NCBI GenBank assembly: GCA_964187785.1
Contig: OZ076409.1
Location: 11,410,001 to 11,474,000 of the forward strand
Direction of reading: 5' to 3'
DNA length: 64,000 bases
Origin: Amphiscolops sp. MND2022
Lineage: Eukaryota
Under the pieces are notes generated by a model. That model ran no database searches, was not told the DNA's origin, and saw only the letters and a program-made list of their open reading frames with translations. Positions 4,677 to 50,228 of this stretch are shown piece by piece. A program made the translations under genes and the position numbers. Position 1 is the first letter of the stretch; the number at the start of each line of letters is the position of its first letter.

Positions 4677-4858
4677 TCAGATGTTTGAATTACAGCCCCC
4701 GCTACTAACTAATAAATACGAGTATTTTCTCGGGACTTGTCTGACTGATAGATTAACAGTATAATCAACAAGAGAAACCAAAAATGTAAAGAACAAATTA
4801 ATGACAGTAAGTTTATATGAACAAGTAATGAGTAAATACAATTGTACTCTATGTACAA

Positions 4859-9220: not shown

Positions 9221-10385
9221 CTTGCCGCTATTTTGAAAATCTTCCGGAAGTAAGTTTGAACAATGTTTCCTTATGAAAACATTTCACGATGGAGGAAGTA
9301 CTTTAGCTTAATCTGAACCCTGATCAAGTTTAGCTTAAGCAAACATTTCAAAAAACCAACCTGACGTTACTTCCATGACGGGAGAACGGAAATTTCAGTC
9401 CTGAAAGGAAAAATTTGTCTTGAAGTCTGCTTAGGGAAATAGAGCTGGCTGTAAAGTTTGTCAGGAAGACCTGAAGACGGATGTGCTGTATGGACGATCC
9501 AGTGGAAAGGCTTACCACGGGAGCGGGGAGTTGGATCCATAGAAGAGGATAATGTAACGGAATGACCAATTCAATTGAATGTTAGAATGAAGGTGTGTAT
9601 GGAACAATTCGGGAGATTGATCCGAATAATGAGTTGTACCCAAAGTTCAAAGATTGACTACAAACAGACACAAATATGATGTTATGCATTTTATTGACTC
9701 ACTACACAAGTACTGTACCATTGTCACTAACCGACTCTACATGAAATACTCACCACTTACGACTTACAATAACTATGATTGAAAGGACGTCGTGGCTAAA
9801 ATCACTTTCATTACCTGTTAACTAAAATACAATAGATGCGACCAGATATACTTTGCCTTTCATGTCTGGAACCTGCCAGTGACATTCATGAAATTTATTT
9901 TGTTTCAATTCATTTCATTTCATCATACTCACTTTATTATTTCATGTTGCCAATCATTTAATTATCACCATAATTATTCATGGCTTCTTATTGGTTACTT
10001 CAGCGGTGACGCTCAGCGGACCACCGGTCTTTATTGATCTCAATGTTTACTTGTTGTTATGAATGAATAACACTTTCATTCACCATTACATCTTAATGAA
10101 GTGTTAAACAAATAAACTGAGGGCTACTTGAAAGCGAATTAACTAAAGGCGACTTCCATTCAGGGAAGGAACTAGAATAAGTCTTTCTTAAAATGGAAAA
10201 GTTTGTGATAAATTTAGGAAAATGCGCAAAAATTTTCCTCTCCTAATATTTTCCCGCGACCCTGAGGATTTGGGGTCGGCCAGTCGAGAACAATTCATTC
10301 GATTAAACCTTGTCAGAGCGATACAGTTGTTTCATATCTTCTCGAGATTGCTAAGAAAATACTCTTACAAAGATTCAATATTGAA

Positions 10386-14666: not shown

Positions 14667-14834
14667 TGTAATAGCTAACGGCTTGATAAAAGAAGTGTGA
14701 AAGCAAATCAACTGTATTTCAGCTATCTCAGACTGTAATGGTGGTCTTTACTATTTTGTCAGAACACTGTGTTTCTGTCTGGCAGGTACTTTGTCAACTT
14801 TGACTAACTGTTCTTTTATCGCAACACTACTACA
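14667..14834 (-). repeat. 3' LTR of element C
   Basis: Direct repeat of 19511-19678, preceded on the minus strand by the polypurine tract GGCGGGGGAA (14835-14844). Confidence 0.95.
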
Positions 14835-15098
14835 TTCCCCCGCCTGCAATTGACGGTTGGGAATTATAGGGGATACAGTGATTTATAAATGTAACAAGAA
14901 CACAATTGTACAGATTAGGTAAGGTAAGGATAACTGAAAAATACTACAACGTCAAGTTTAAAATGTTTCTCATGTTTTAGTTTTTCGCCGCTTTTTTCTT
15001 CTCTTTCACTTCACAGATATACACTGGAAATCCATATCGATCGGGTGCCCGTCTACTTCTTCTGATCTTTTCTGGCATATCGTCTGGGTCGTCTTGTT

Positions 15099-18000: not shown

Positions 18001-19511
18001 CTGACTTTTTCGATATGTCCATTTTTTATCAGTTTTTGCAGTTCCTTTTCAACCGAATTTTGGAGTTGTAGGGGTATGCGGCGTCCCTTTTGTTGTTTTG
18101 GTACAAAATTTTCTTTAAACTGCGCATTTATTTCGTGTCCTTCGACTCGTCCGTGCCTATTGAACAATTCTCCAAATTCGGTAAACAATTTGTTTGGTGG
18201 TTCACCTACGCAATCAATTTCACACTTACCACCATCTGTCTTTAGCTTGACGCCCAAACCCCTCAATCAGTCTCGGCCTATCACTGTTCTCGCGCCGTTT
18301 TCTGCTATTAGGGCCCTGACCTTGTCCAGCTTTTTACATCCTGCTTCGACTTGTCCAATAATAGCCCCGATGAACTCAATTTTGTTTCGGCTGTAGTCAA
18401 CATATTTTTCGTCTTCTCGCAGGGTTTGCAATTTGTAGTTTTTTCCAAACATTTTGTCCACGTGTGCTTTTGTGAAAATTGTGATCGGGGACCCGGTGTC
18501 AATGAGTGCGTGGAAGGGTTTTCTGTTAAACTTTCCTTTCAATACAAAGGGTTTGTTTGTGTGTCCCTGTTCTTCGTCGATGAGAAATATTTCCACTTCT
18601 TCTCCTGACTCGTCCTCCGATCTGCTCCATGATGATTTTGACTGTACTACATTCACCCTTTTTTGTTGGGGGGCCTTGTTTTGTTTCACGTCTGTTTGTT
18701 TCATTCGGCACATTCGCGCATAGTGACCCATTCTCCCGCAGTTTCTGCACTGTACGTTTTTCGCCTTGCAAATCTTCTGATGTCCGGCGACGAATAGTCT
18801 TTCTCCGCATTTGTAACATTCGTTGTGTTTCTCTATCGCGAACACCGGTTCCTCTTTAATGTTTGTTGATTTCACACAAATTGTTTTCTTTTGGTAGGCA
18901 CCTTGTTCAAATGCTACCGCAAATTTTAATGCGTCCTCTGGGTTGTCCTTTGGTTCAGTGAAAAGTCTCTCTTGCACTGTTGTATTCTTCATATTCGATA
19001 CGAATATATCGTAAACTAGTCCAGTGGTCTGTGAACCAAAGTCACAATTTGCAGCTAGTCCGTTTAGGGCGTGCCAAAACTGTTCTAAACTCTCGTCGTC
19101 CTTTTGTTTTCTATTTAAAAATTTGTGGCGGTCCATCAACCGATTTCGCTTTTTCTGAAATGCCTCGTTGCATTCTTTCAGGAGATCTTTCAATGTAGTT
19201 GTTTTTATGTCCATATTGGGTTTCCGATCCAATAATGCCTTTCTGGCAGCTTCTCCGAGTGCTATATACAGGAAACTCACTGCTTTTTTCTCTGCAATGG
19301 ACTCTTCTGCACCTCCCATCAGTTCTTTTTTTCTAGGGTTTGTGCTTGCATCCTCTCTTGTGAGTTCTTCTAACGCTTTGGAGGATTTCGCCATAAGGGT
19401 TGCTTCAAACAGTTCTAGCCATCGACTCCATTCATGTTGTTTTTCTGCGGCTGGATCTTGCCAGAATACGGGTATGCCCGATATTGGTTGGCTTTCCGCT
19501 CGCAGCGCCAT
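15099..19511 (-). pseudogene. gag-pol: gag-pol of element C, one frame with two premature stops
   Basis: Two zinc knuckles (CYKC...H...C and CRNCGRMGHYARMC), LIDTGS protease, FIDD RT, ICDAS RNase H, HSGH...CTNC and D..D..E integrase. TGA stops at 18267-18269 (IGRD*L) and 17565-17567. Confidence 0.92.
19498..19510 (-). promoter_or_regulatory. Primer-binding site of element C (TGGCGCTGCGAGC), probably tRNA-Ser
   Basis: TGG directly follows the 5' LTR terminal CA. The complement resembles eukaryotic tRNA-Ser 3' ends (from recall, not searched). Confidence 0.7.
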
Positions 19512-19678
19512 GTAATAGCTAACGGCTTGATAAAAGAAGTGTGAAAGCAAATCAACTGTATTTCAGCTATCTCAGACCGTAATGGTGGTCTTTACTATTT
19601 TGTCAGAACACTGTGTTTCTGTCTGGCAGGTACTTTGTCAACTTTGACTAACTGTTCTTTTATCGCAACACTACTACA
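19511..19678 (-). repeat. 5' LTR of element C
   Basis: Direct repeat of 14667-14834, followed by the PBS. Confidence 0.95.
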
Positions 19679-33488: not shown

Positions 33489-33903
33489 CTATTGGACAAG
33501 CCTAATTGTTGTTATAAACTTATTGTTACGACTATTGTTCGGTGTTGTTTTAGAACTAGTCGCAGTTCGTGTCTTGACTGGGGTGGACGTTCTTGTTACG
33601 GAGATGTTTTCTTGGTCAGAATCAGAATCTTGTATGTTCGAACTAACTGTGCGTTTCTTGTTCGTAGGTGCTATTAATTTGAGCATTTCCTTTTGATTTT
33701 CGGCTAATATCTTTGTTAGATCAGTCATTATTTCTTTCCTCAGAGTTGTTTTCATTTCCTCCAGGTTTTCAAGCTCAAGTCTAGGATTTTTACTAGAACT
33801 AGGTATCAGGTTTTCAATAGAGCCATTTTCATTCAGAGAAACTTCGAAATCTCCTGACACTAACTCAGCTACAGCTTTCCTCTTCTGGCTTCTAGTTGCC
33901 ATT
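33489..33903 (-). CDS. Copy of the Gag N-terminus (MATRSQKRKAV...NNSRN) in the 3' LTR, reading into flanking DNA
   Basis: Nearly identical to the first ~126 aa of ORF 46682-48166 and diverges exactly at the LTR end (33524). Confidence 0.85.
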
Positions 33904-35868
33904 TTGATTGAGAGAGAGAGAGAAAGTATCTTTGGAAAAGTTGAATTCTTCAAAGATTTAAGTTTTCTTTTGGATACGTTATAGTAACGGAACAAAACTG
34001 ATTGTTACAAGGCAAGTCAAAAAATTGTAACTTTACATGTATGTACTACATATTTATACTTTCCCAGCATCATTTGTTCCTCACCTAAAAATTCCTAGGT
34101 ATCACAAAAATCGGGTTTGTTCAACAAAAAGCGCTAATGATTCATATCATTTCAGTGCCGCGTCGTAAAATCAGGCTTCAAAATTCCTAGTTGCGTCAGC
34201 GTCCCGTAAAATTTGTTGAAATCATTTTTGTTCAGGCAATCCCATTTCCTGTTTAAGTCTCAAAATTGCGGTAAAATAAAAGTCTAGCTTGCATTTTCAT
34301 CAGCGTAAGCACGCCGACATGAACAATTAGTCAATTTTCAATTTGGGAAGCTGAGATTCGAAGCAACAGAATGACACTCAAAAATGGTGACGGAATGACG
34401 ACGGAATAAATCAATTTGGAAGCGGATGAAAAACATGGAAATTTGGTATAAAGGAACAAACGATGCTGAAATTATAATCTCAAATTCAAACATATGAATT
34501 ACCTGCTAATGGTATGCTATATTGTTTACATTGAACACAAATTAAGTCCAAACGGGACTTTAACGGGATACAACAAAGATGAGCGCAACATATTCGTAAT
34601 AATAAACGGAAAGCAACTTCAACACTTTGCACAATAATCATGAAATTTATCAAAACATAATCGAAATCTGGTCATTAGCCCGATTGTTATTATCATAAAA
34701 TACAACTGTCACTACTGACTTGAAGCCGATGAATTGACGTTGACCTTACGTCCTATGTTAGGATTATTGTTAAGATATTTTAAGTGCCGTAGTAAATCAA
34801 GTAGATTTGTTCCCTTAAGGAGGAACTAAGTAAGGCGTAATGTCAACGTGTTTTAGTGATTTACCATGATGATACAAATCCAGAACATAAAATTACCATT
34901 GCAATTTTCTATCATTCTTCCTTACAGTACAGTTTTCCTTATGTAAAATCATAACTCTTAAATCTTTCAAATGCATCGATTTAAAGGGCTTCGTTTGGAT
35001 TTCGTTTGAAGCAGTATTTTTCATTTGCGATTTTACAATTCGCTCCGTAGGTGCTACGTATTAAGATTATCTATAGCAGAACAGCGGAATACAATTTTAC
35101 AATCCGCACCGTAAGTGTTCCGTACGTATTGAGATTGCTCATAGCTTAGCTGTCGGACCAAGCGGAGAGAAAGCGGAGTGCGTAGGTGAATTCATTCTCT
35201 TTCTCTTATTCCAATTGGTGTTGCTAGGGGCAACCGAAATTGATTCTATTTGACTTAGCTAAGAATAGTTCTATCAATAGAGTGACGTTATCGGTCCGTA
35301 GAAGCAAAATTCCTAATATTAGCTCAGTAGATTGACGTTGCCATAGCGTTGTAAATATTTGCCTAAATCACTTGGCTGTGCTTTAAGTGAATATTGACAA
35401 CCACTTCATCTCTGGAAAACAATTCCGCTCTATTATTTGTCTGTTCTTTTTCATTTTAGATTGTATGAATTCCGTTGGGATCTCGGAATTGAATTTTATT
35501 TTAATGTTTTCATTTTAGTGTGGACCAGTGGAAAGAATGATCCCAATTATAAATGTTCATTTTAGTGTTTAGATTAGTATGGCAGAAAATCAGAAGATCA
35601 TACCGGAAGTGAAAAATCTTATCACGCACGGAGAATATTTAACCGGAAGTTTTAGCTAAAAATCATTTCTGAAGAGTGTTCCGTAACGTTTACGTTAGGT
35701 TTTGTATTTGGAAAATTATCTGCAATCGATTTAGCTGTACTGTAAGTAGAATTTAGATTAGTTTAAGATTAGTTTAATAGAGTTTACCTCGGCCTTGTCC
35801 TCGGCCTCTTCCAAAGCCGGGTATGCCGCTACAGCAATAGAAATTACGACCGGGAGCGGGTCGTGACA
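33524..35868 (-). repeat. 3' LTR of element B (2345 bp)
   Basis: Near-identical to 47788-50124: about a dozen substitutions plus 2-bp and 6-bp indels, counted by eye. Confidence 0.96.
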
Positions 35869-36679
35869 GGGCTCCTCTTGAACCAAGAGACAAGGGTAGA
35901 GCGTTGCAGTGTGGGATCTCTTTTCCGATAATGATTGGGGGACGTCCGTTGTGTAGCCGCCTGCCGCGAGCAAGACCTCTGCCCTCCTTCATCTTGGCTA
36001 TGAGCTTTTCTTCTTCTTCCATTTCGTGACTTTCCTTTTCTATTTGCGCCCACACAGCAGGACAAAATTCGGGTGGCCCACTTGGCTTGCTCGAGTTGCC
36101 CAATGTACAGTTGCATTTTTCTTTTCCCTCCGTAGGGGGAACGTTTTCGTTTCTGCGGGGTAAGAATGGGGGTTGTCTGGGGCATTCCATTGCTTTCAGG
36201 CCATGGCCACGTCTGGCGGTTGCGGAGAACTGACGGTCTTCTAAATCTAAGTTGTATAGAGCGTCCAGATCTGCTAGCGGGGGTTCATTTAGGTCATTCA
36301 GCCTGACCGTATTCGGTACTCTTTCATTTCCCAGCAAGGGAATTTTACCTTTCGGAGTGGACGCGGTTTCTGCCCGAGAGGACTGTTCCTGCGGGGAAGG
36401 TGGCTCTTCGTAGTAGTCATCTGTGTCCGAATTGGCTGTTGACAGGTTGAACGTGACTCGCCCGAACTTCTTTTTCTTTTTGGGGGTGGGCCCAAATTTC
36501 CTCGGGGAGACATCGGAACCAAAAGAAGACTCTAAGTCTGCGTCGCTCCCGCGGTAAACTTCGACCGAGGAGTCACTTAGAGTTCCTACCGTATTCAGGG
36601 GCAGCGTTTTCAGCGGAGTGCTCGTGCGATTATTTTCCTCATCAGAAGAGATGTCAATAACCAAGCTGTATCCGTTCAT
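35774..36679 (-). CDS. 3' sense accessory ORF of element B (301 aa, low complexity) crossing the PPT into U3
   Basis: Intact ATG-to-stop ORF. N-terminal LVIDISSDEE, basic PKKKKK stretch and RG-rich tail. The last ~31 codons lie inside the LTR. Confidence 0.75.
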   Translation of the reverse strand: MNGYSLVIDISSDEENNRTSTPLKTLPLNTVGTLSDSSVEVYRGSDADLESSFGSDVSPRKFGPTPKKKKKFGRVTFNLSTANSDTDDYYEEPPSPQEQSSRAETASTPKGKIPLLGNERVPNTVRLNDLNEPPLADLDALYNLDLEDRQFSATARRGHGLKAMECPRQPPFLPRRNENVPPTEGKEKCNCTLGNSSKPSGPPEFCPAVWAQIEKESHEMEEEEKLIAKMKEGRGLARGRRLHNGRPPIIIGKEIPHCNALPLSLGSRGALSRPAPGRNFYCCSGIPGFGRGRGQGRGKLY

Positions 36680-37272
36680 CTTGTTGAGAATTTCAGATTG
36701 TTTTATTTCAAGGATTTTCCTTGTTGGTGACGATTGTGCGTTAAGAAAATTGTGCTGGTCAAGCTTTATGAAGATTGGACGACAAATGACCGTTTCAAAT
36801 TCTTTCTTACATAATTTTTATCGAAATTCTATTGGTCGGTTTTTCCGTTTTCGTTCCGGTGCGTCCCGAGTTAAGAAAAGAGATTTCTTTCATCTGCGCA
36901 GTGATTGGTTGAAAACTCATAGAAAATCTTCTAATTTTATCTTCTTTCTTCTTTCTGTTTAATGGCGTAATGACGTCATTGATTTTTCTCGAATGTTCTA
37001 CGTTCATATTCCGTAATTTTCAAAATGCCATCTTTCCTTCAGAGCTTCTTGATGAATCTTTTATTCATCCGTATGCTTTTTGGAACGTTTTGTCCCGTCA
37101 CTGCCGTAATAGGCTTTCACTGAAGTTGAAGTTTAGATGATTTTTCAATTACGTAGGGATGACGTTGATGATTTCTTTTAGGGTGTCAACTTTTACTCGA
37201 CGTGATTTCTATTTTGTTGATTTCTTTTTCCTTTTTAGATTTCGTTGGCAATCGCTATTGTCACTTTTGGTC
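36680..37272. promoter_or_regulatory. Putative bidirectional internal promoter region
   Basis: Lies between two divergent start codons (36679 minus, 37273 plus). Contains palindromic ATGACGTCAT (36970-36979) and several ATTGG/CCAAT motifs. Confidence 0.5.
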
Positions 37273-40200
37273 ATGAGTGAAAACGCTGTTCCTCCTGATG
37301 TCTCTGGTTTTCTCAGTGGGCATGAGACTAACTTGTGCTTCACTGAAGACGACGCTTATCCCTCGGAAACGGAAGTTATAGTTACTTCTTCAGGTTGGTA
37401 AAAATCTTTCTGACTTCTTGGGTAGTAGGGCTCTTTTTGTTTTGGTGATCAGCCTTTTATAGTCTTACCCGTATCTCTGACGCGTCTGAACCAGATCTTG
37501 ATTTTCAGTAACTCAACCTGGAACTTCCTTGACTGTTGTTTCCGCTACTACTACGGGTGGGACATCTGCTACCCCCATGGGGTTATCTTCGCTGGGTTCT
37601 TCTTTGAAGCTGCCTCCAGTGACTTCAGTGCTGGTTCCTGAGCAGTCCATTAATGATGTTTTGACAACATTGCTTCCTGCTAATCCTACTACTGGATCTT
37701 CAGTAGTTCCGGGTGTTGATGTCTCTTCTGCAGCTCCTCCTGGTTTGTCCGAAGTAGTTCCGGGCGTTGATGTTTCCTCTGCAGTTCCTCCTGATTTGTC
37801 CGAAGTAGTTCCGGGCGATTTTGATGTCAGTGTGGAGCCTCATGAAGGTGAGGCTGCTACCACCTCCACAGGAGAAGAAAGAACTGTAGAAGAGGAGGAT
37901 ACTCCAGTCTGTAAGTTGTGTGTTTGTGTGATTGGGTTCTTTTGTTGTTGTTGTTTTTTTTGTCAACTTGTTGGTTTCTGTTTTCCATTTCTTATCACTC
38001 TTGTGTTGTAGGTTCGAAAGTGTTTCCATTCCGGAAGACGAGCGTGAAGTTCATGGAATCGTCTCCGAAATTGAAAAGGACAACACGGGTCGCAGATGTT
38101 GATGCTACCTTGAGTGGTTGGAGTGGGGCAGAAGACGTATCATTCTCGGCAACTCCCGTGTCACCCGAAATGATGCAGCTGGGTCGTCAGTTGGCTTCGA
38201 CGGTAGAGGAGCGTACTGCTCGGCAGATACAGACAGGTGAGTTGTTTATTTGTGATTGGCCTCTTGTTGGAATGGTGTGTGGTACGTTGCAGCGACGTTT
38301 GTTTTGGGTGTTACATTTGTTTGATTGGTTTTGTGTGTGTTATAGGCTTCAGCGAGCTTGTTGAGAAAGTGGAGAGTCACTTTGAGCGCCCGAAGGCGAA
38401 GAAGTATAGCAGTCGGAAGTTGTTGCATCGTCGGATGCTAGCGCTGAATCCATTGTTTGCTGACTTCGTGACGGGTTCGGAGTGTGGAAGTGCAAAGGTC
38501 TTCTATTGTCGCATTTGTAGAAGAGACGTAAAGATGGGCTCAAAAGGGGCAGCTGAGTTTGTTCGTCATTTTGAGTCGAAGAAGCACTGGGAGCAGGACG
38601 TCACATATCGTGTGCACATGGGTCTCCCTGTGTACAACAAGCTAATGGAGCCCATGGAGCTGAGTGCCCGACAGAGGGACGATTTCCTTTCACGGCCCTT
38701 CGTGGATTTGGGCGGGGAGTTTCCTTTCCCTGAGGACATGTTGCCCAAACATTCAAAGGCTTCTTCGAAGGTGCCACTGATGACTCTCGTTTCAAGTTTG
38801 AGTGATGTGTTGCGCAGTGGCGGGGATTTCACGTTGGTTCGTCGTCTGTGGGGCTACTTCCTTGCGTCTCTGGGCGGTCGGGATCCGGAATTCTCTCTAC
38901 AGTGGAGTCGCTCAGAGACTGTGGTTAGTATTTTTGTGTGTTTGGTACATTTAGTGGGTGGTGTTCTGTTATGTGGTATTTGCTCCTTTTATTGTAAGCC
39001 GCTAGGTGACCGTAAAGATGTACTGTTGTGTGATTTCGCTCTCCGTTGTTGTTTGTTTCCTCTTCCTTCTTCTTTTCATTTGGGTGTTTGTTTCAGTCCG
39101 TGTTGTGTCAAGGCCTTGTTCCCCGAGTGCTGCGCGTGATGTTCAAGAACATTGGGCAATTTCGGGAGTATTCTCTGCAGTATGAAAAGGATACGGAGGT
39201 AGAACGTTGTTTCGTTCTCTTCTGGGAAGACAACTATTTGAAGAAGGTATGTGTCGGTTGTGAGTCGCTGCTGCAGCATGTGCCAAAACCAGAGTTGCTG
39301 CCCTTGGCACGAGTCGTCTGTAGTTTACCGTCTGGGAAGTTGCCTTTGGCTATAGTCGGCGGAAGTCCGTCCTTAGTCCGTGTCTTGAGTGACACTCGCG
39401 CTGACAGTCGTGTCTTTGTGTCTTATCAGCCCTTCACTAGTGAGATGTTGATTCGTTGTATTCGGCAAGCCTATCAGGACGTGTTCAGTATGATGGAGGT
39501 GACTTCCCTGGTGGATTATACCGTGTTACGTTTGAAAACTGCCATTTACGAGGACTGGATGGAGGAGAGAGCCATACTGTGTAAAAGTGTTCGTCAGGGC
39601 CACGTGGAATTCGCTGATTTGCGGGAAGTACTGTCAGATCTGATAGAGTTATGGCCTTCAATACGTCCATTTGTTCGATGTACTGGTAACCCTGAGGCTA
39701 AGGACAAGGCTGAACGGGTGAGTGAAAATTGTTCCTTCCGTCCGGTGTAGTTGCGGTGTTACTTTTTGTCATATCATGTTGTGTATTTTAGCTACAGGGG
39801 ATTGATTGGTTACTAACTGCCGATAATATGATAACGTATCGGTTCAGTCTGCTGAAAGTGATCCTTGATACTTGTGAGTGTTTTCTTTTGAGTTGATAGA
39901 TTGTTTTTTGACTGTTGTTGACTGCGTATTTGTTCGTATTAGTGGCTGTTCTTTCCTGTCTTTCTCTTTTGTGTATTGGGGTAGGGTTGTTCTTCTGTTG
40001 TATACGAATCATGGTGTATGTTTTAGTCTACAACAATTGCCCCAGATTTCGACAGGATCAGGCGGATTATGCTTTCCGCGCTTATGGCGAGTTTTGCAAT
40101 TTTGTGTATTGCCTGCTCTTGAAAACTCGCAGCACCAGTGGTCTTCCTGAAATTCATGCTTGGGAGTGTTACATGGATGTCGTGAAGGCCCGGGATTTCG

Positions 40201-41327
40201 CTGTTGTTCCGTGTGATTCTTTCCTCTCTAATCATGACTTGGGGAAACAGTTATCCGCAGGCAAGACGAAAGAGTATGTGGCTTTCCGACTTCATTGTCG
40301 TCAGTTCGTTGATCGTCTGATCATCATTTTACTGGAAAGCACATATGCACGTTCTGTTATTGCTAAGGGGATGTGTAGTTTCTGCCCCGAGTTGATGCTG
40401 GAAGGCGATGATGTGGCCGTTTTCAGTCTATTTGCGGATTTGTGCCGTATTCTTGTATCCTGTGGTTCGCTGAGTGTGGACGAAAGTAGTGCAGCTTTGG
40501 AGGAACAGGCAAGTTTCATTGTGGAAAAGCGTGGGTATCATTCTTCGTCAGGGCAGTCTGCTGGTGACATCGTGAATGTGGTGCCGTACCTGCTCCGTGA
40601 TGTTGGGTTCTTGTCACGACCACATTTGCTCCGGGTATTCAAGTTGTGTTGTCTTGTCGCGGGAGTGTCTGTCTCACGCTATCCTGCCGTGTCTCTGGAT
40701 TTATCTGAGTTTACGTTGAGTGTTGCAGACTTTCAGAGCTGTGTGCAACTGGTGCAGTCTTATATATTGAGCGAAGGGTATTCGCATCAATCCTTCTTCA
40801 GTGATCAGACTCTTATAGTTGTGAAGAAGGCCATCGCAGATGCTGGTAGATTCTTTGGAGCGTCTGACTTCAGTATGTGGACAGATTTTTGTAGGGAGGA
40901 TGTAGATGCCTTTGTTGTGAAGTATAGTGCCTTATTTACTACTTTCCTCGCAGAGCGCCGGAAGAGCTTCGATGCCCGTTATGTGGAGTACAATAATTCA
41001 AATCGGATGTCCCGTCTATCTGATAGTGGCGATACAGCTGGTTCGAGTGGTTCCTTGAGTTCTGTGATCCAGCGGAAGAGGCAAGATACAGGTCCTCCAA
41101 GTGGTGTTTCTGTGAAATCTGGTGGCAGTAAGTCAAGTAATGGCGGAACGAAGTCGGAGTCGAAGTCTGCTACTATTTCGTTTAAAAGGAAGCAGCAGAA
41201 AAACGTCGGTGGTGATTCGGGTGGTGGAGCTGGTTCATCTAAAGGAAGAAAGAAAGCTGTGCGAGATGCTGATGATGATGATTCTGGTAGTCAGCCGAAG
41301 TCTAAGAAAGTGTCCAAAAACTGTTGA
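37273..41327 (+). CDS. Seven-exon antisense accessory gene of element B (1109 aa; zinc finger plus hAT-transposase-like body)
   Basis: Exons 37273-37393, 37509-37910, 38012-38236, 38346-38923, 39097-39717, 39792-39873 and 40027-41327. All six introns are GT...AG and T-rich, with phases 1,1,1,0,0,1, giving one uninterrupted 3330-nt frame. CRIC-x16-H-x5-H finger at 38507-38587. Confidence 0.85.
37703..37820 (+). repeat. 51-bp coding tandem repeat (VVPGVDVSSA(A/V)PP(G/D)LSE, ~2.3 copies)
   Basis: Units start at 37703, 37754 and 37805, within exon 2 of the antisense gene. Confidence 0.85.
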
Positions 41328-41475
41328 TGATTTGGTTTCTTGTTGATGTAGTTATATTTTCCTTTTAATTGTCTGCCAATCTTTGTTGTATTAGTTTTTG
41401 AGTATATAGTTTTAGAGAATCTTGAGAAAATTGACGTAGCCATTCCGGTTCGGTTTGGTTTGTTGAGTTTTTTAG

Positions 41476-44400
41476 CTAGTCTTGAGTTGGACGTGAGTCC
41501 TCCGTAGTAACTGAGTCAAGCATTCGAAAATCAGGATTGACATTGGGTTTCGGATTAGGTCGTAAGTTGTATCTTCCCACTTTTCTAGGGTTATATCCAA
41601 CGACGATAGGCGGCAATTCGGGTGTTTTGGGAGGGCTGTGTATCGGTGGTGGGGTCAAAATATATGGGTTATCGCTGACATCTAGGTCAAATGACGTTAT
41701 ATTGTCGGAAGGTGTTTTGTCTTCTGCAGTATTTTCATTTGTGGCTGTTTGAGCCACGTCGTTTTCCATTGTAGGTGCGTCTGTGGTTATTTTAACCACG
41801 TCATTTTCCACTATACTTTCTTTGGTGGTTGTTTTAACCACATCATTTCCCGTTGTAATTTCGTCGTTTCCTGTTATGTCTTCGATTTCTGTAAGTGTAG
41901 CTTCTTTGGCGGCGTTTTCCGTATTGTTTCCGAACAGAACTTCTCCGAATTCGGTTTCCCAAGCTTGCGCGTACCAATCATTGTGGGTTGTTTTAACCTC
42001 TTGGTCTGGAAGGTAATCTTCCCTTCTGACTGTTACGTCAGGTACTCGCTGATTGGGCGCATATAGCCTTAGGCGAATTCTGTGGAGGGTTTGAGTATAC
42101 CTAGTTCTCGTGCGGCGTACGACGTAGTTGTTGTTCGAGAGTACTTTGACTACTATGTAGGGTCCAGTCCAAATGCAATCTTTAAAGGCGAATTTCATCG
42201 ACTGGTTGTCTGCCCTCGGATTAAGGACGTAGCAGTAGTCGTTGACTTTGAGTGGCGTTGCTGTCGCTTTCTTGTCATAGTACTGTTTGTACTTTAAGTA
42301 GGACTGCATTAGATTTTCTTTGGCGGCTTGGTGTATTTCGGATATTTGCTTCTGTAGTTGATCAGTCAGTTCTTCGTTGTTATCTTTTTTCCATTCAGGT
42401 TTCAATCCGAGTTTTATGTCTAGGATGTTGTACGGAATGCGTCCGTGAAATACTGTTGTGGGTTCACAACCTAGGCTTTCATGATAGCTCGTATTGTAGT
42501 TCATGACCGCGATCTGGACATATTTATGCCACATAGAGCGTCGTTCTCCCGTTGATATCTTTAGGGAGGTTTTCAAAGAGGCATGAGTCCTTTCTAGGAT
42601 GCCAATTGTTTGAGCGTGTTTCGTCGATGCGTGGCTTATCCGTATATCCAGTGTTTGTGTTATTTGATTGACTACTTCTGACCTGAATTGTGATCCTTTA
42701 TCCGTTAGAATGACGGTCGGCAGGTAGCAGTGTCGTGTCATGACGTCTATTATGCATCGTGCGACTGTTTTGGCTGTCATGTCCTGTGTCGGGTAAGCGA
42801 AAAGGTACCGCGAAAAAACATCCATCATCGTTATGATGTGTTGGTATCCATTTGAGGAAGGTAGATTTGGTAGAATGTCTACTTCTAGGCAGTCTTCTGG
42901 TCCCATTGTGAATTCAGTGTTGCTTAGCATTTTGGGACGTATTTGTCTTGTGTCAATTCTTTTATTGGCAATGCAGTCTTGACAGCTGGTTACCCAAGCT
43001 CTGATTTTACGTGCAAGACCCGGGAAGTAGTATTTCGCTCTGCATTCTTGTATCATTTTTGTGATTCCTGGGTGTTTATTTGTTTTCCCATGTAGAGTGG
43101 CCAAGAGTTCTGGGACTAGGTGTTTCGGAATTATAATTTGATTATGGGTGACTGATCCGTCTTCTCCGTAGTATTTCCGCATCAGAACTCCATTTTTCAT
43201 TATGATTCTTTCTTCATGGCGTAATAGGTTTCGTCCTCGTGGTTCAGTTTTGAGAAGGTGTTTGTCATATTCTTCGTGTGAGATCCGTTGTTTCAGTGCT
43301 TTGAGGAGAGGGTCTGCATCTTGCTTGTTTCTGATCCGTGCATTTTCTTTGATTGCACCGAAGGAGTAGACTGCGGAGTTGAGTGGTATCTTGATGACTT
43401 CGGTTACTTTTGTTGATAGTTCTCTCTCATGTTCGTCTAGGGCGCGTCGTTTGCTGAGTGCTTTTCGGGCAAAGATTTCTTGTTCAGATTCATCTTCTTC
43501 ATCAGGTAGGAAGAAAAGTTGTTCTTCGTCAGCTACATCTGATGATTGTAGATTGACCTCAATTGGGGACGTTAGGATGTCGTCTCGTAGTTTAAGTTGT
43601 ACCTTTTCTTTCGGTGTAAGTTCGAGTCTTGAGAGAAAATCTGCTGCTGTGTTTTGGGAGCCTGCTACGTGCATAATTCGAAACTTGAACTGTAATACAT
43701 AGTCGCAGGCATTCCAGAGTGCAGGGGGTGTCGTTTTGGTCTGGAAGAATCTCGTTACTGAGCGGTTGTCTGTTAAGACCAGGGTTGGAATTGTTGCTTC
43801 CCATAGTATGTGACTGTATTCGAGGAATGCATGATAGATTGCTAAGAATTCCTTGCAGTAGATAGACATTTTCAGTTGTGCAGGTGAAAAAACTCGTGAT
43901 CCGAACGCTACTGGTGCGAAGGTTTTTCGTTTGGAGAGTATTTTGCGTTCATCGTTCTCCTCAATCATGAGGGCGTAGCCTGACGCACGAAAGCTTGCAT
44001 CCGTCATTAGGACGTATTGTTTTCCTGCTATGGGCTGTCGGAGCGCAAGTCCACAAGCTTCCGCTAAACTGGCGTTAATTTCCTTAAAGTTATCGACAAG
44101 TTCTTCTGACATTCTGATCTTGGAGTTTGCTTTAAGAAGTTCGTACATGCCGATGAGCTTTTCTGACAAGCGCGGTATGTAGTTGCGGTAATAGTTAACA
44201 AAGCCAATGTATTTTTGAACCTGTTTTTTGGATTTGGGGAAGCGGACTTTGGAGAGGAAATTTTTGACTTTTTGATCTTGCGGGGCTACTCCGTCGGGGG
44301 TGATGGTTCGGCCAAGGAATTCGATTTGGGTTACTCCGAAATGACATTTTTCGATAGTTAGTTTTAGTCCTGCTTTCCTAATACATTTGAAGACTGCTCT

Positions 44401-46761
44401 GATGTTTTTTATGAGCTGTTCCGTTGTGTTTGCGGCAATGCCAATGTCATCTACGTATTGTGCACATTGATCGGCTTTGATGACTGAGTCCAGATACTCA
44501 CGCATGAAGCTCGAAAAGGCTGATAGGGCTCTGCTTAGTCCTTGTGCCAGGCGACGATAGGCGAACGTCCTACTAGCGAAATTAAAAGCAAGTAACTCTA
44601 CTGACCTTTGGTCTGCCATTTGAAGGCAGTGATACGCCTGGGAGCAGTCAAGTTTGCAGAATAGTTTTTTCCCTGCTAGGTGTTGTGCCGCATCTGAGAG
44701 GGTGCTGACAGGGTGGTTATTGTTGATGTAGTCATCTGCTATGAGTGCGTTGATTTTGCGCAGATCCACCAGTAGTCTCAGTTTGCCGTTGGGTTTCCGT
44801 TGTGCAAATATAGGACTGGCGTACTTGGAGAAGGGGAGTGTCGTGATGATGCCGTATTTGTGCATCAGTGCCAGTTCCACTGTTAGGTCTTCTTTGAGGT
44901 TGATCGGGACAGGTAAGCTCTGTGTGTAGACTGGTTTGTCGTCCTGTGGTGTTAGGCTGACTTTGAACTGTGTATTCATCCCGATATCTAGTCGGTGTCG
45001 AGCAAAGATGTCATTGAATTCAACAATGGTGTCCTCAAGGTTTTCACGGTCTTTGCCCGTAATTAGTGAGTCTGTCCATTTGAACATTGATAGAAATTTG
45101 TTGCGAGAGTCTTCGTTTTCGGTTGGGTCAAGTTTTTCTAGTTCGGCAAGGTCCCGCAGTTCTTTCAGGATTCGCTTTTGTATGGGCGAATGTTCTTGTT
45201 CGTTGCCTGGGTGTTCTGGGGTCGGGAACCAGAATTTTTCTTCATTGTCTTCTGGCCGTTCTACTTGCATTAGTGCGTTGATGTACGTGACCACATCGTC
45301 ATGGTCATTGAGGAGATTCAGGGCGGCAATGTCAACTGGACGGATCATCTTCGTTTCTTCGGGTTTCAGGATTTGCAGTTCGGCCATTTTGGTGTCGTTG
45401 GCTATTGTGTATGGAAAATCCGTGGTGTTGGCGATTTTAATTGGGAGCTTTTTATCTCTAGCTGTTGTAATCGCTGGGGCTACTATTACTTTCGCGCATT
45501 CATCGAATTGTGGTAGGGGTTGTATTGTGCCCGTTATTGGGTGCTCAATACTCACAGGGATTGTTGCGTAGATGACTCGGGTAGAGTGCGCTGGGATTGT
45601 ATGTTTGGCTTCGGTCTTTATCGTGATGGGTTTGGGATTGCACTTTTGTCTTTCGTCTGTGAGCGCCATCGTGATTTGGATCTTGGGAAAGTTGATGGTT
45701 CCCTGTGCCGTGTCAAGGATTGCGGCATGCTTTCGTAGAAACGCTAATCCAATTATGGGGAATGACGTTTGATTCATGATGATGAATGTTTCTTCAAAAG
45801 TGTAATCCCCTATTTTGAAGCGTAGAGTGTACGTGGCAAGTGGTTGTTCTAGTTCGGCATTGGCGTATTGCACTTTGAAAGGGGGTGGAGGTGCTTTGTT
45901 AACAATGCATTGACTCGCATTTTGGTGGAGTTTTTCAGCATCCCTTTCGCTAATAGCATTAATGTACGCACCTGAGTCGACTAAGGCTTCGATTTTGACA
46001 GTGTTGAATTCGATTGGTAAGAAGAGCATTTTCTTCTTGAGGGCAATTGCAGACATTAACGGGATGTAGTCGTCTTCCTTGTCGTGCTGGATGAATTCTT
46101 TGATGACATCTAGATCTTCTGGTAGTGTTGGGTGACATTCCGTTATTTCTTCGTCTTCAGCGGCTATTGCTGTGGCTGGCGCGGTTTGTGGTGGTGACGA
46201 GAGCGAAGCGGTGTTTTCTCGCTGTTCTCTTGCTTGTCGTGACCATATTGTTTTGTCTTCAATGCCAATGATGTTTTCGGCATCGATCGGTGTGGACGTG
46301 ATGGTGACGGGTGCTGTTGGGGACGGTGTTGTTCTTTTCAGGATCGGTGACGGCGGTGACGGTAGGTTTGTGATCTTCGTAGCTTGAGCTTGAGGGTTTG
46401 AGACTTGGATTTTGAAGGATAGTTTATTTGTATCATAGATGGTTGGTTCATCCCAAGGGTCACATCTGTAGTCTCTGTCATATATATAAATTCGGTCTGT
46501 TTTTGATTCCGGCAACGGTCTTTTGAGTGTCGCATAGTTATCGGGCGATTCTGTTATCCACTGGGGTAGTGGCGTTGGATCTTCTGGGTGTCTGGCATTA
46601 TGCCTGAGTATCATGCCTACGTTCCAACGGCGTTGCCAGTCTTGAGTTGGTTCTTCATTACATTCGGTTAAAAAATCTTCTTCATACCTGTTTGGGGGGT
46701 CCTCTATCGTGTACGCCCTCGCGTCTACTTTTTCCCCAAATCGTAGGCGCGGCGACTTTAA
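41476..46761 (-). CDS. pol: pol of element B (protease, dUTPase-like segment, RT, RNase H, integrase), uninterrupted
   Basis: LVDSGA; YVDD; TDAS...E...TDN...ADFLSR; HGKTNKH...CQDC; D..D..E; GPY. The frame stays open from the slippery site at 46761 through the 1712-aa ORF. Confidence 0.96.
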   Translation of the reverse strand, partial: LKSPRLRFGEKVDARAYTIEDPPNRYEEDFLTECNEEPTQDWQRRWNVGMILRHNARHPEDPTPLPQWITESPDNYATLKRPLPESKTDRIYIYDRDYRCDPWDEPTIYDTNKLSFKIQVSNPQAQATKITNLPSPPSPILKRTTPSPTAPVTITSTPIDAENIIGIEDKTIWSRQAREQRENTASLSSPPQTAPATAIAAEDEEITECHPTLPEDLDVIKEFIQHDKEDDYIPLMSAIALKKKMLFLPIEFNTVKIEALVDSGAYINAISERDAEKLHQNASQCIVNKAPPPPFKVQYANAELEQPLATYTLRFKIGDYTFEETFIIMNQTSFPIIGLAFLRKHAAILDTAQGTINFPKIQITMALTDERQKCNPKPITIKTEAKHTIPAHSTRVIYATIPVSIEHPITGTIQPLPQFDECAKVIVAPAITTARDKKLPIKIANTTDFPYTIANDTKMAELQILKPEETKMIRPVDIAALNLLNDHDDVVTYINALMQVERPEDNEEKFWFPTPEHPGNEQEHSPIQKRILKELRDLAELEKLDPTENEDSRNKFLSMFKWTDSLITGKDRENLEDTIVEFNDIFARHRLDIGMNTQFKVSLTPQDDKPVYTQSLPVPINLKEDLTVELALMHKYGIITTLPFSKYASPIFAQRKPNGKLRLLVDLRKINALIADDYINNNHPVSTLSDAAQHLAGKKLFCKLDCSQAYHCLQMADQRSVELLAFNFASRTFAYRRLAQGLSRALSAFSSFMREYLDSVIKADQCAQYVDDIGIAANTTEQLIKNIRAVFKCIRKAGLKLTIEKCHFGVTQIEFLGRTITPDGVAPQDQKVKNFLSKVRFPKSKKQVQKYIGFVNYYRNYIPRLSEKLIGMYELLKANSKIRMSEELVDNFKEINASLAEACGLALRQPIAGKQYVLMTDASFRASGYALMIEENDERKILSKRKTFAPVAFGSRVFSPAQLKMSIYCKEFLAIYHAFLEYSHILWEATIPTLVLTDNRSVTRFFQTKTTPPALWNACDYVLQFKFRIMHVAGSQNTAADFLSRLELTPKEKVQLKLRDDILTSPIEVNLQSSDVADEEQLFFLPDEEDESEQEIFARKALSKRRALDEHERELSTKVTEVIKIPLNSAVYSFGAIKENARIRNKQDADPLLKALKQRISHEEYDKHLLKTEPRGRNLLRHEERIIMKNGVLMRKYYGEDGSVTHNQIIIPKHLVPELLATLHGKTNKHPGITKMIQECRAKYYFPGLARKIRAWVTSCQDCIANKRIDTRQIRPKMLSNTEFTMGPEDCLEVDILPNLPSSNGYQHIITMMDVFSRYLFAYPTQDMTAKTVARCIIDVMTRHCYLPTVILTDKGSQFRSEVVNQITQTLDIRISHASTKHAQTIGILERTHASLKTSLKISTGERRSMWHKYVQIAVMNYNTSYHESLGCEPTTVFHGRIPYNILDIKLGLKPEWKKDNNEELTDQLQKQISEIHQAAKENLMQSYLKYKQYYDKKATATPLKVNDYCYVLNPRADNQSMKFAFKDCIWTGPYIVVKVLSNNNYVVRRTRTRYTQTLHRIRLRLYAPNQRVPDVTVRREDYLPDQEVKTTHNDWYAQAWETEFGEVLFGNNTENAAKEATLTEIEDITGNDEITTGNDVVKTTTKESIVENDVVKITTDAPTMENDVAQTATNENTAEDKTPSDNITSFDLDVSDNPYILTPPPIHSPPKTPELPPIVVGYNPRKVGRYNLRPNPKPNVNPDFRMLDSVTTEDSRPTQD

Positions 46762-48166
46762 TTTTTTGGCTGAGAGGACGTGGTAGGTACAGGTTGTTCA
46801 CTGATTTTGTTGGTTGGGATGGTGAATTCTCGTTTCTTCTTTCTGGGGTCATTTGCTGCGTTGGCTCCGTTCCAACAATTCTCAGTTTTGTGCATCTTGC
46901 CACATGTATCACACTTGGGTTTGGGTACTTCGTTTTGGGCTGGGTCTTTGTGTTTGTTTTGGCTGTATTATAACGTTCTCGTTGAAGTTTGCGACACTGT
47001 GCTTTGTAGTGGCCATATTTGCCACAGTGAAAACAATGGCCTCGTTGTTGTTGGTCTTTTTTATGGTCCGTCACTACAGCGTCCACTGTGTTGAGTGGGA
47101 CTAGGATTGTTTCATCGGGCGCACCTAGTCCGTTTAATCTCATCTCCCTCTCAAGATGTAAAACTATATCATTGTAGGGTTTATCTTCCAAATATGCTCT
47201 GTTGAGGATCTTTTTGACGTGATCCGGCATTTTGGCGTAGATTGCTTTATCAATGAATTTTTGTGCTTCTGAGCCGAAGGCTTCTTTTGCAGTTTTTTGC
47301 AGGGTGTCAAGGAACTCATGGAGTTTCTGTTTAGTGGGGTCAAAATGCAGGGCGTCCCACTCACATCTCGCTTTAGCGGATGATTGGAAATCACCAAAGC
47401 GGCGTTTAAAGGCCGTTATGACTTCTTCTAGGTTGTCTTTTTTGGTGTCATCTAGATTACAATACGCTTGTAGTGCGTTTCCTCGTAGGAGTGAATGGAA
47501 GTAGTTGATCTTTTGTATCTCGGTTAGGTGAGGATACATTTTGATATTGTTTCGGAATAGGTCCTCAAAAAGTTCAAACTTTTCGGACTTACCATCAAAA
47601 ACTGGGAGCGAAGCAGTGAGTGCTTTCGGCATTGGAAGTAGATTGGTTGATGGGAATGTCTGTGGTTGTGGTGCGAACAGTATCTTTGACGTGGATGGTC
47701 GGTCTTTTGGTTGTTCGCTGAGTATACGTTGTGCTTTTGGTCTTTTGGTGGGTTGGTTAGTGGAATCATTGAGGACTCCTGTCACCATGTTACGACTATT
47801 GTTCGGTGTTGTTTTAGAACTAGTCGCAGTTCGTGTCTTGACTGGGGTGGACGTTCTTGTTACGGAGATGTTTTCTTGGTCAGAATCAGAATCTTGTATG
47901 TTCGAACTAACTGTGCGTTTCTTGTTCGTAGGTGCCATTAATTTGAGCATTTCCTTTTGATTTTCGGCTAATATCTTTGTTAGATCAGTCATTATTTCTT
48001 TCCTCAGAGTTGTTTTCATTTCCTCCAGGTTTTCAAGCTCAAGTCTAGGATTTTTACTAGAACTAGGTATCAGGTTTTCAAAAGAGCCATTTTCATTCAG
48101 AGAAACTTCGAAATCTCCTGACACTAACTCAGCTACAGCTTTCCTCTTCTGGCTTCTAGTTGCCAT
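46758..48166 (-). CDS. gag: gag of element B (starts in the 5' LTR; one apparent frameshift between the two zinc knuckles)
   Basis: Capsid-like LPVFDG...KINYFHSLLRGNA and knuckle CFHCGKYGHYKAQC. The second knuckle CDTCGKMHKTENC (46875-46913) and the PKN* ending are in a shifted frame. Confidence 0.9.
46761..46767 (-). promoter_or_regulatory. -1 ribosomal frameshift heptamer A-AAA-AAT
   Basis: Immediately before the gag TAA. A -1 shift enters the pol frame. Followed by a potential stem CGCGcCTAC...GTAGaCGCG. Confidence 0.7.
47775..47787 (-). promoter_or_regulatory. Primer-binding site of element B (TGGTGACAGGAGT), possibly tRNA-Leu
   Basis: TGG directly follows the LTR terminal CA. The complement ACTCCTGTCACCA resembles tRNA-Leu 3' ends (from recall). 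It lies within the gag coding frame. Confidence 0.7.
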
Positions 48167-50124
48167 TTTGATTGAGAGAGAGAGAAAGTATCTTTGGAAA
48201 AATTGAGTTCTTCAAAGATTTAAGTTTTCTTTTGGATACGTTATAGTAACGGAACAAAACTGATTGTTACAAGGCAAGTCAAAAAATTGTAACTTTACAT
48301 GTATGTACTACATATTTATACTTTCCCAGCATCATTTGTTCCTCACCTAAAAATTCCTAGGTATCACAAAAATCGGGTTTGTTCAACAAAAAGCGCTAAT
48401 GATTCATATCATTTCAGTCCCGCGTCGTAAAATCAGGCTTCAAAATTCCTAGTTGCGTCAGCGTCCCGTAAAATTTGTTGAAATCATTTTTGTTCAGGCA
48501 ATTCCATTTCCTGTTTAAGTCTCAAAATTGCGGTAAAATAAAAGTCTAGCTTGCATTTTCATCAGCGTAAGCACGCCGGCATGAACAATTAGTCAATTTT
48601 CAATTTGGGAAGCTGAGATTCGAAGCAACAGAATGACACTCAAAAATGGTGACGGAATGACGACGGAATAAATCAATTTGGAAGCGGAGGAAAAACATGG
48701 AAATTTGGTATAAAGGAACAAACGATGCTGAAATTATAATCTCAAATTCAAACATATGAATTACCTGCTAATGGTATGCTATATTGTTTACATTGAACAC
48801 AAATTAAGTCCAAACGGGACTTTAACGGGATACAACAAAGATGAGCGCAACATATTCGTAATAATAAACGGAAAGCAACTTCAACTCTTTGCACAATAAT
48901 CATGAAATTTATCAAAACATAATCGAAATCTGGTCATTAGCCCGATTGTTATTATCATAAAATACAACTGTCACTACTGACTTGAAGCCGATGAATTGAC
49001 GTTGACCTTACGTCCTATGTTAGGATTATTGTTAAGATATTTTAAGTGCCGTAGTAAATCAAGTAGATTTGTTCCCTTAAGGAGGAACTAAGTAAGGCGT
49101 AATGTCAACGTGTTTTAGTGATTTACCATGATGATACAAATCCAGAACATAAAATTACCATTGCAATTTTCTATCATTCTTCCTTACAGTACAGTTTTCC
49201 TTATGTAAAATCATAACTCTTAAATCTTTCAAATGCATCGATTTAAAGGGCTTCGTTTGGATTTCGTTTGAAGCAGTATTTTTCATTTGCGATTTTACAA
49301 TTCGCTCCGTAGGTGCTACGTATTAAGATTATCTATAGCAGAACAGCGGAATACAATTTTACAATCCGCACCGTAAGTGTTCCGTACGTATTGAGATTGC
49401 TCATAGCTTAGCTGTCGGACCAAGCGGAGAGCAAGCGGAGTGCGTAGGTGAAATCATTCTCTTTCTCTTATTCCAATTGGTGTTGCTAGGGGCAACCGAA
49501 ATTGATTCTATTAGCTAAGAATAGTTCTATCAATAGAGTGACGTTATCGGTCCGTAGAAGCAAAATTCCTAATATTAGCTCAGTAGATTGACGTTGCCAT
49601 AGCGTTGTAAATATTTGCCTAAATCACTTGGCTGTGCTTTAAGTGAATATTGACAACCACTTCATCTCTGGAAAACAATTCCGCTCTATTATTTGTCTGT
49701 TCTTTTTCATTTTAGATTGTATGAATTCCGTTGGGATCTCGGAATTGAATTTTATTTTAATGTTTTCATTTTAGTGTGGACCAGTGGAAAGAATGATCCC
49801 AATTATAAATGTTCATTTTAGTGTTTAGATTAGTATGGCAGAAAATCAGAAGATCATACCGGAAGTGAAAAATCTTATCACGCACGGAGAATATTTAACC
49901 GGAAGTTTTAGCTAAAAATCATTTCTGAAGAGTGTTCCGTAACGTTTACGTTAGGTTTTGTATTTGGAAAATTATCTGCAATCGATTTAGCTGTACTGTA
50001 AGTAGAATTTAGATTAGTTTAAGATTAGTTTAATAGAGTTTACCTCGGCCTTGTCCTCGGCCTCTTCCAAAGCCGGGTATGCCGCTACAGCAATAGAAAT
50101 TACGACCGGGAGCGGGTCGTGACA
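47788..50124 (-). repeat. 5' LTR of element B (2337 bp)
   Basis: Direct repeat of 33524-35868. TATAAAT on the minus strand at 48314-48320, ~150 nt upstream of the gag ATG at 48166. Confidence 0.96.
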
Positions 50125-50228
50125 CTTATTAAATAGATCTTTTTGGTGGTTAGTGAGCCATACGACCTGGGCGGCCCTTCTCGGCAATTCAGCATTGGCT
50201 CTTTGGCACCCTTCATACACCTGTTTCA

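Follow-up and report, generated by a model that had tools for sequence, protein, structure and literature searches.

Open reading frames that run antisense to the coding region and lie between pol and the 3' long terminal repeat (LTR) are known from several plant retrotransposons, namely gene23 of maize Grande, rice RIRE2, Retand of Silene, frames with a TRP28 domain, and PvRetro13 of Phaseolus; the gene23 protein of Grande is described as nuclear, and its gene as having a promoter of its own (PMC7264820, PMC11963269). The main text of these two sources does not contain the word 'intron'. In the fungus Botrytis cinerea, Boty-like Ty3/gypsy elements carry the antisense gene brtn (cited in PMC7264820 and PMC8365987), and in human T-cell leukaemia virus (HTLV) the antisense promoter is located in the 3' LTR (PMC7264820). 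Here we describe a predicted antisense gene with six introns in a 64,000-nucleotide stretch of the genome of Amphiscolops sp. MND2022 (contig OZ076409.1, positions 11,410,001 to 11,474,000), which is called the window and in whose coordinates all positions are given. The gene occupies 37273-41327 on the plus strand, inside an LTR retrotransposon that is encoded on the minus strand, and judging by sequence comparison it is very probably a genuine, conserved and spliced gene of that element.

The predicted antisense gene is composed of seven exons, listed here together with the first intron:

37273-37393, plus strand: exon 1, start codon at 37273, 40 codons and 1 nt; a homologous coding exon 1 exists in the most distant (51%) family of copies described below
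37394-37508, plus strand: intron 1, 115 nt, GTTGGT..TTTCAG, unusually conserved
37509-37910, plus strand: exon 2, rich in Ser, Thr, Pro and Val, with a 51-nt (17-codon) tandem repeat at 37702-37817
38012-38236, plus strand: exon 3, followed by an intron at the same position in homologue P0001
38346-38923, plus strand: exon 4, with a conserved C-x2-C-x15-H-x5-H zinc-finger motif (FYCRIC...RHFESKKH)
39097-39717, plus strand: exon 5
39792-39873, plus strand: exon 6
40027-41327, plus strand: exon 7, an all-alpha domain and then a basic tail rich in Ser, Gly and Lys; stop codon at 41325-41327

Joined together, these segments comprise 3330 nt, corresponding to 1109 codons and one terminal stop. Intron lengths are 115, 101, 109, 173, 74 and 153 nt, and all six introns are of the GT..AG type, with the donors GTTGGT, GTAAGT, GTGAGT, GTTAGT, GTGAGT and GTGAGT and with pyrimidine-rich YAG acceptors throughout. 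Since the length of five of the six introns is not a multiple of three and the remaining one holds an in-frame stop, the frame is continuous only if the transcript is spliced. The tandem repeat of exon 2 is present in 2.3 copies of 51 nt, and its copy number differs among copies of the element in in-frame steps of 51 nt.

The surrounding element is a complete, young insertion of the Ty3/gypsy type, as follows from its nearly identical LTRs, its target-site duplication and its internal gag and pol:

33524-50124, minus strand: complete LTR retrotransposon of the Ty3/gypsy type, 16,601 bp, recognised by self-BLAST, its end sequences and Pfam matches in pol and gag
33519-33523 and 50125-50129: target-site duplication ATAAG, 5 bp
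47788-50124, minus strand: 5' LTR, 2337 bp, TGTCAC...GTAACA (TG..CA ends)
33524-35868, minus strand: 3' LTR, 2345 bp, with the same TGTCAC..GTAACA ends
46682-48166, minus strand: gag open reading frame with a DUF1759 match and a CCHC-like motif, starting inside the LTR
41476-46797, minus strand: pol open reading frame, 1773 codons from stop to stop, with protease, reverse transcriptase, RNase H and integrase
47771-47787, minus strand: primer-binding-like site TGGTGACAGGAGTCCTC, TGG-initiated, directly after the 5' LTR and within the gag reading frame
35869-35882, minus strand: candidate polypurine tract (..CAAGAGGAGCCC), purine-rich, abutting the 3' LTR

Self-comparison of the window revealed the LTR pair as the single long direct repeat of the element, 99.19% identical over 2345 columns. 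The 5' LTR is adjoined by TGGTGACAGGAGTCC and the 3' LTR by CAAGAGGAGCCC, which are the candidate primer-binding site and polypurine tract, respectively; no tRNA was matched to the former. Along pol, the Pfam matches appear in the order Asp_protease (residues 255-362), RVT_1 (667-832), RT_RNaseH (926-1032), Integrase_H2C2 (1223-1279) and rve (1300-1392), and its C-terminal tail contains a 42-nt tandem repeat of 2.8 copies (41740-41857). The start codon of gag (48166-48164) and its initial ~126 codons are contained in the 5' LTR. Due to this arrangement the 3' LTR repeats the gag start at 33524-33902 on the minus strand, where the frame runs on into the flanking DNA (open reading frame 33489-34004). 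Pol and the 3' LTR flank the antisense gene, which is encoded on the opposite strand, with its start codon 1405 bp internal to the LTR boundary and its stop at 41327 facing the pol stop at 41476. A first-pass annotation of this DNA had joined seven exons into a frame of 1109 residues and had located it antisense within an LTR retrotransposon. The present coordinates and splice motifs match that gene model exactly, and the LTRs, the target-site duplication and pol on the opposite strand confirm the location.

LTR elements replicate through a full-length sense RNA, and introns on the sense strand are lost when spliced molecules serve as templates. The introns of the antisense gene would appear in this RNA as their reverse complement (CT..AC) and would not be seen by the spliceosome. 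Being unrecognised in the sense RNA, they would be inherited intact by each new DNA copy.

Copies elsewhere in the 1.07-Gb genome bear on this expectation directly. A probe of 1372 nt, spanning exon 4, intron 4 and exon 5, was scored against the best 40 of 535 candidates, and all 40 genomic matches cover it from end to end with 90-100% identity. A protein search with exon 7 gave 99 matches (97 of 7363 first-look candidates were scored), which fall into tiers near 97, 91, 87-89, 66-72 and 51% amino-acid identity; the families of copies are referred to below by these values. Among the full-length exon 7 matches, 50 of 55 are free of stop codons. When 20 loci were selected from all five tiers on exon 7 similarity alone, the order LTR end, antisense gene, pol was seen in every one of them. 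For a closer comparison each copy was aligned pairwise to the window, no consensus being built. In the first set all six GT..AG pairs are kept in 14 of 15 copies and the spliced frame is open in nine, one of which has a changed terminal stop. The second set comprised 14 loci, two of which are the same insertions as in the first set; the 12 distinct further copies keep all six GT..AG pairs in 11 cases and an open spliced frame in seven, with the last 110 nt of exon 7 uncovered in 7 of the 12. Taken together, all 12 splice dinucleotides are preserved in 25 of 27 distinct copies and the spliced frame is open in 16 of 27. In the open copies, insertions and deletions within exons measure 0, 3 or 51 nt, the last being gain or loss of the 17-codon repeat of exon 2, while those within introns are of any length. 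In every sampled copy, drawn from at least five sub-families, the antisense gene has an identical location and orientation, and it recurs in a second, distant lineage, which shows that it is integral to the element.

Selection on the frame was estimated as the ratio of non-synonymous to synonymous divergence (dN/dS) by the method of Nei and Gojobori. Among the window copy and eight other open copies, dN/dS is 0.14-0.33 in all 36 pairs. In a comparison of ten copies with the window, the annotated frame yields 0.14-0.22, the two shifted frames of the plus strand 1.14-3.62 and two of the reverse-complement frames 1.00-2.45; pol of the same ten copies yields 0.05-0.15. Moreover, exons of diverged copies are 93-94% identical compared with 86-92% for their introns. 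Comparison of the copies hence shows purifying selection on the predicted spliced frame, nearly matching in strength the selection on pol. The first-pass annotation had proposed that the introns came through retrotransposition. The bona fide insertion, the complete coverage of the intron 4 probe and the retained splice dinucleotides bear this out, and the neutral outcome against which it wanted the gene checked, with dN/dS near 1 and exons mutated like introns, is not what the copies display.

The introns are not only retained but also old. In the 51% family exons 4 to 7 were found, with frame changes between them, and frame-keeping GT..AG introns place the exon 4/5, 5/6 and 6/7 junctions at the same residue and phase as in the window copy: ..WSRSETV^S.., ..D(V/K)..(D/E)R^L.. 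and ..LD.F^.. (phase 1), where ^ marks the junction. The corresponding intron lengths are 80, 91 or 70, and 137 nt, versus 173, 74 and 153 nt in the window copy. For the span from exon 2 to exon 4 of this family no valid two-intron model exists, versus 396 valid three-intron models, the exact choice among which is not secure. Homologues from other public assemblies, 46-59% identical, are single-exon gene calls that read through the introns (alignment A2). In this alignment similarity ends at ..WSRSETV(VS) and returns at ..(F)QS.LC.GL, with unrelated hydrophobic read-through in between; from the protein letters, we infer that 'VS' and 'FQ' represent a translated donor of the GTnAGT type and an acceptor of the TTT CAG type.

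A still more distant relative is located in the window itself, as part of a second element:

4859-9283, minus strand: distant paralogue of the antisense gene, 21-26% identical, tail-to-tail with the pol of the second element
859-9283: second element, of a sister lineage and 5'-truncated, with pol at 859-4572 on the plus strand

The pol of this element aligns to the main pol in two blocks, with identities of 57% and 43%; it is devoid of an RNase H segment aligning to main-pol residues 958-1067. The paralogue keeps the FYC.IC...H.....H finger. Its exon 4/5 site reads TCA^GTAAGT...TTCTAG^ and its exon 6/7 site is a phase-1 intron GTTAGC...TTTTTAG^, and the gene is broken by an in-frame stop at 8222-8224, at the junction of the open reading frames 8225-9283 and 7094-8224. 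Judged from these alignments, intron positions and phases are shown to be ancient, having outlived almost all sequence similarity.

The architecture of the antisense gene, with many short GT..AG introns and an upstream block of the TATA-less CCAAT/CRE type (CRE, cAMP response element), resembles that of host genes, and the gene might be viewed as a passenger, that is a host gene captured (transduced) in reverse by one element family and carried without use; gene capture by LTR elements is indeed discussed as an origin of extra open reading frames (PMC7264820). Such a passenger would, however, drift towards a dN/dS of about 1, whereas the ratio between element lineages is about 0.2, and the gene is present in five sub-families as well as in the second lineage, whose pol is only 43-57% identical. 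Nor was a cellular, named or long homologue found. With exon 7 as query, relatives form 427 clusters at E<=0.001, 237 of them at E<=1e-10; all of the best 150 of the 427, among the matches listed, have at most 443 residues. Ten of ten relative clusters that were looked up are unnamed, many clusters are multi-copy, and the hits are single-exon gene calls. The search returned no related proteins of 757-2160 residues, which is weak evidence, and a single-protein scan of metagenome contigs returned no relative of the antisense protein. Taken together, capture as a passenger is very improbable. The term 'host-style', which the first-pass annotation had applied to the gene, suits its architecture but finds no counterpart in a cellular homologue. 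Given its occurrence in lineages with such divergent pol and the lack of a detected cellular homologue, the antisense gene is, on sequence grounds, as old as the split of these lineages and represents an ancient gene of the element rather than a recent capture.

The predicted protein matches no Pfam family at E<=0.1 in any exon. Below this threshold, exon 4 of the window copy draws four finger families of the C2H2 type, SF3a60_Prp9_C (E 0.14; 13.1 bits, curated cut-off 30.7), zf-C2H2_ZN292 (E 0.21), zf-C2H2_jaz (E 0.22; 12.2 bits, cut-off 22.6) and zf-met (E 0.91; 10.4 bits, cut-off 21.2), three of which are U1/JAZ-like; homologue P0223 draws KIN17, likewise sub-threshold (E 0.086; 13.5 bits, cut-off 27.7). 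The spacing C-x2-C-x15-H-x5-H is typical of RNA-binding fingers of the U1/matrin/JAZ type. All four zinc ligands are in register in nine of the ten A2 rows that span the finger, the cysteines of P0224 being displaced, and they are also found in the 26%-identical paralogue. At the finger, the low-confidence model of P0003, a read-through homologue, draws a hairpin and a helix. Exon 7 was modelled with confidence as an all-alpha fold (AlphaFold2 block-mean predicted local distance difference test, pLDDT, of 82-98 for exon residues 11-210). A Foldseek search of exon 7 against the PDB gave nothing at E<=0.001, the wide VIA-align search a sole match to a single long helix (289-338, Z<=5.6) and BFVD, which holds viral models, no match; a sequence profile search of the PDB gave one chance-level match. 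In the ESM Atlas, scores of at most 0.87 to assorted helical-repeat subunits of nuclear complexes were obtained, which serve as leads only.

The succession of an N-terminal finger of the C2H2 type, a long region and a large helical C-terminal domain recalls the layout of hAT-like transposases. This raises the question of whether the gene originated from another mobile element, for instance from the intron-bearing zinc-finger transposase of a DNA transposon nested in an ancestral LTR element, an origin compatible with an accessory role today. Residues 277-352 of P0003 are drawn, in a model of low confidence, as three strands, a helix, a strand and a helix. However, the model of that region cannot be used (pLDDT 41.7), acidic catalytic residues could not be placed, exon 7 has no PDB or viral fold match, Pfam contains no transposase family matching even at E<=10, and the antisense gene is not flanked by terminal inverted repeats. 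A transposase ancestry is thus improbable.

The most conserved part of the gene is not an exon. Intron 1 is 92% identical (102 of 111 positions) to that of the 51% family, versus 50% for exon 1 and 58% for the start of exon 2. By BLAST, the stretch 37391-37544, which comprises intron 1 and extends 36 nt into exon 2, is the best conserved of 10 kb including pol (87% versus 78-79%). The ends of intron 1 form an inverted repeat that spans donor and acceptor. An Rfam scan of the whole element, intron 1 included, gave no family match, folding of intron 1 is no better than that of shuffled sequences (z of 0.42 on the plus and -1.34 on the minus strand), and covariation was not found in it. Two candidate functions were rejected: an internal sense promoter, as other families do not conserve the TATA-like TATAAAAG of the minus strand, and a box C/D small nucleolar RNA, which was dismissed by eye, the boxes being too close and the C box imperfect.

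Upstream of the start codon a further conserved block was identified:

36831-36979, plus strand: promoter-like block comprising two ATTGG boxes (36831, 36904) and the palindrome ATGACGTCAT (36970-36979)

The two ATTGG boxes are separated by about 73 bp, and ATGACGTCAT follows about 60 bp after the second; all three are unchanged throughout the 97, 91, ~70 and 51% families, in an alignment (A4) with a mean column identity of 60%. The window contains the 10-mer ATGACGTCAT three times, where 0.06 occurrences would be expected. By consensus match and conservation the block looks like a TATA-less CCAAT/CRE promoter, in which ATTGG represents the inverted CCAAT box and the palindrome is a perfect CRE. 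The first-pass annotation had also proposed that the gene is expressed from a promoter of its own, for which this block is the candidate. A pyrimidine tract followed by TAG, some 35 nt ahead of the ATG, is likewise conserved (TTTTTAG at ~37230-37245; TTGTTTCAG in the 51% family), which suggests a further intron in the 5' untranslated region. An in-frame ATG at 37159, 114 nt upstream of the conserved start, is present only in the window copy. At the other end, the region 41427-41687, which covers the 148-bp spacer and the ends of antisense gene and pol that converge on it, is 72-76% identical between families, above the neighbouring exon 7, which is left unaligned by BLAST in the 51% family next to these ends. 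This region might hold the 3'-end signals of both transcripts.

Overall, the locus is probably best explained as a selection-maintained, intron-bearing accessory gene of the retrotransposon that is transcribed antisense to gag-pol. Several observations weigh against this explanation. Frameshifts or stops break 11 of the 27 copies, as expected for decaying insertions. A scan of the plus strand over the 1.27 kb that follows the stop (41328-42600) found neither AATAAA nor ATTAAA, the nearest variant of a poly(A) signal being AATATA, 330 nt downstream. The model of exons 4 and 5, built on P0003, is too poor for use, and the predicted function is without support from any family or specific fold match (Pfam, Foldseek against the PDB, VIA-align, BFVD). 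In all 36 pairs the synonymous distance (0.05-0.27) exceeds the intron distance (0.01-0.18), so that either the introns are constrained or a transition bias inflates the Nei-Gojobori estimate. Finally, dN/dS is also low (0.18-0.30) in the third reverse-complement frame, and the ratio alone therefore does not fix the strand.

This last observation, like the conservation of intron 1 above that of the exons, which demonstrates non-coding constraint in the region, would also be compatible with conservation arising from the sense genomic RNA or from an antisense non-coding RNA, the open frame being incidental; antisense non-coding RNAs are known from the retrotransposons micropia and TART (cited in PMC7264820). 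However, the low reverse frame is the one whose third (wobble) positions coincide with those of the antisense gene, and the longest open frame on the minus strand across the gene has 116 codons. Because of this coincidence and the lack of a long minus-strand frame, we interpret the low ratio as a reflection of the signal of the gene itself. In addition, conservation is structured by codons in the plus frame only, exon insertions and deletions keep the frame, introns other than intron 1 diverge in sequence and length while exons do not, and protein similarity extends down to 21-26% identity with the finger ligands kept. A purely non-coding origin of the conservation can scarcely be credited.

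For a selection-maintained accessory gene, the following course of expression is conceivable. Transcription would start at the internal TATA-less promoter ~300-450 bp upstream of the start codon, and the host spliceosome would remove six introns, perhaps also a seventh in the 5' untranslated region. The mRNA would give rise to a protein of 1109 residues, which may enter the nucleus by means of its Lys-rich tail and bind nucleic acid through its U1/matrin-like C2H2 finger. Acting in trans, this protein could regulate the expression of its own element or the handling of its RNA, the role that has been proposed for the antisense genes of plant Retand and Grande and of HTLV-1. We tentatively favour a regulator that acts in the nucleus, binds nucleic acid and controls how its own element is expressed or what becomes of its RNA, although the odds are somewhat against so specific an assignment. 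A broader proposal is rather unlikely. According to it, a widespread, unannotated clade of retrovirus-like elements would own a multi-intron antisense gene that encodes a zinc-finger protein of the nucleus, and would have co-evolved with this gene since before pol fell to ~50% identity. Intron 1 would be a cis-acting switch coupling antisense splicing to the life cycle of the sense strand, and the introns would mark the transcript as host-like for export and expression where intronless retroelement RNA is silenced. If this were true, such elements would be 'complex' retrotransposons in the way that HTLV is a complex retrovirus.

The main element contains one further candidate gene, on its sense strand:

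35774-36817, minus strand: third open reading frame, 347 codons (stop to stop) with the first Met at codon 47, perhaps another accessory gene

Extending across the purine tract, this frame terminates within the 3' LTR, where it encodes an RGG-like tail, GFGRGRGQGRGK. Compared with seven close copies its dN/dS is 0.10-0.50; it is open in three of the seven, and in the 91% and 51% families other sequence largely takes the place of this region. Elsewhere in the window, a third retroelement occupies 14667-19678 on the minus strand, with open reading frames at 15099-19562 for a CCHC knuckle, protease, reverse transcriptase, RNase H and integrase that are split by stops, and it is flanked by direct repeats of 168 nt (14667-14834 and 19511-19678) that are 99.4% identical.

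From comparison alone, it appears that an LTR element can keep a large gene with six introns for a very long time by carrying it backwards. Extra genes of retrotransposons are rarely annotated since repeat masking hides them and open reading frame finders miss split genes. In the present case a protein family without a name, a Pfam model or a fold match accounts for the 427 clusters in public assemblies and for thousands of first-look candidates in the 1.07-Gb genome, and exons of this family may be misannotated as host genes. The element thus offers a natural system for studying the role of antisense accessory proteins, a contribution of introns to expression or to escape from silencing, and the function of the ultraconserved intron 1.

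Among described systems, the plant antisense frames are similar in their position between pol and the 3' LTR, their orientation and their presence in most or all copies of a family. They also share a long region between pol and the LTR with a tandem repeat, and a suspected regulatory role in the nucleus based on nucleic-acid binding. In position and family-wide presence the gene of the window corresponds to an aORF-3R in the sense of PMC7264820. In contrast to the plant frames, to which it bears no sequence relationship, it is far larger, with 1109 residues, and has six introns; in Pfam searches of the antisense protein PF04195 (TRP28, Transposase_28) was absent even at E<=10 and SMC was absent as well. 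With brtn, whose host is a fungus, it has in common that an extra gene is located on the reverse strand of a gypsy element.

The HBZ gene of HTLV-1 encodes a nuclear bZIP protein from an antisense transcript that has a spliced form with one intron, and the protein regulates its own element. Like HBZ, the gene of the window is a retroelement-encoded antisense gene, here predicted from sequence alone. Unlike HBZ, which starts in the 3' LTR, it has an internal promoter-like block, a start 1.4 kb inside the LTR boundary, and six introns, and the bZIP family was not found in its protein by Pfam. The underlying principle is the one exploited in reverse-orientation intron cassettes of retroviral vectors and retrotransposition indicators, where introns pass through reverse transcription intact only when the genomic RNA carries them in antisense orientation. 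The same principle would be at work here in a natural, ancient and selected gene with six introns.

A search of the open-access full-text literature found no description of a multi-intron antisense gene in an animal LTR retrotransposon. As such, antisense accessory genes located in the interval from pol to the 3' LTR belong to a known kind, described from plants and fungi. What appears to be new is the scale and depth of the present case, in a genome that, from the style of its introns and promoter, appears to be of an animal type: six or more introns, 1109 residues, an unnamed protein family, great age relative to the divergence of pol and an ultraconserved first intron.

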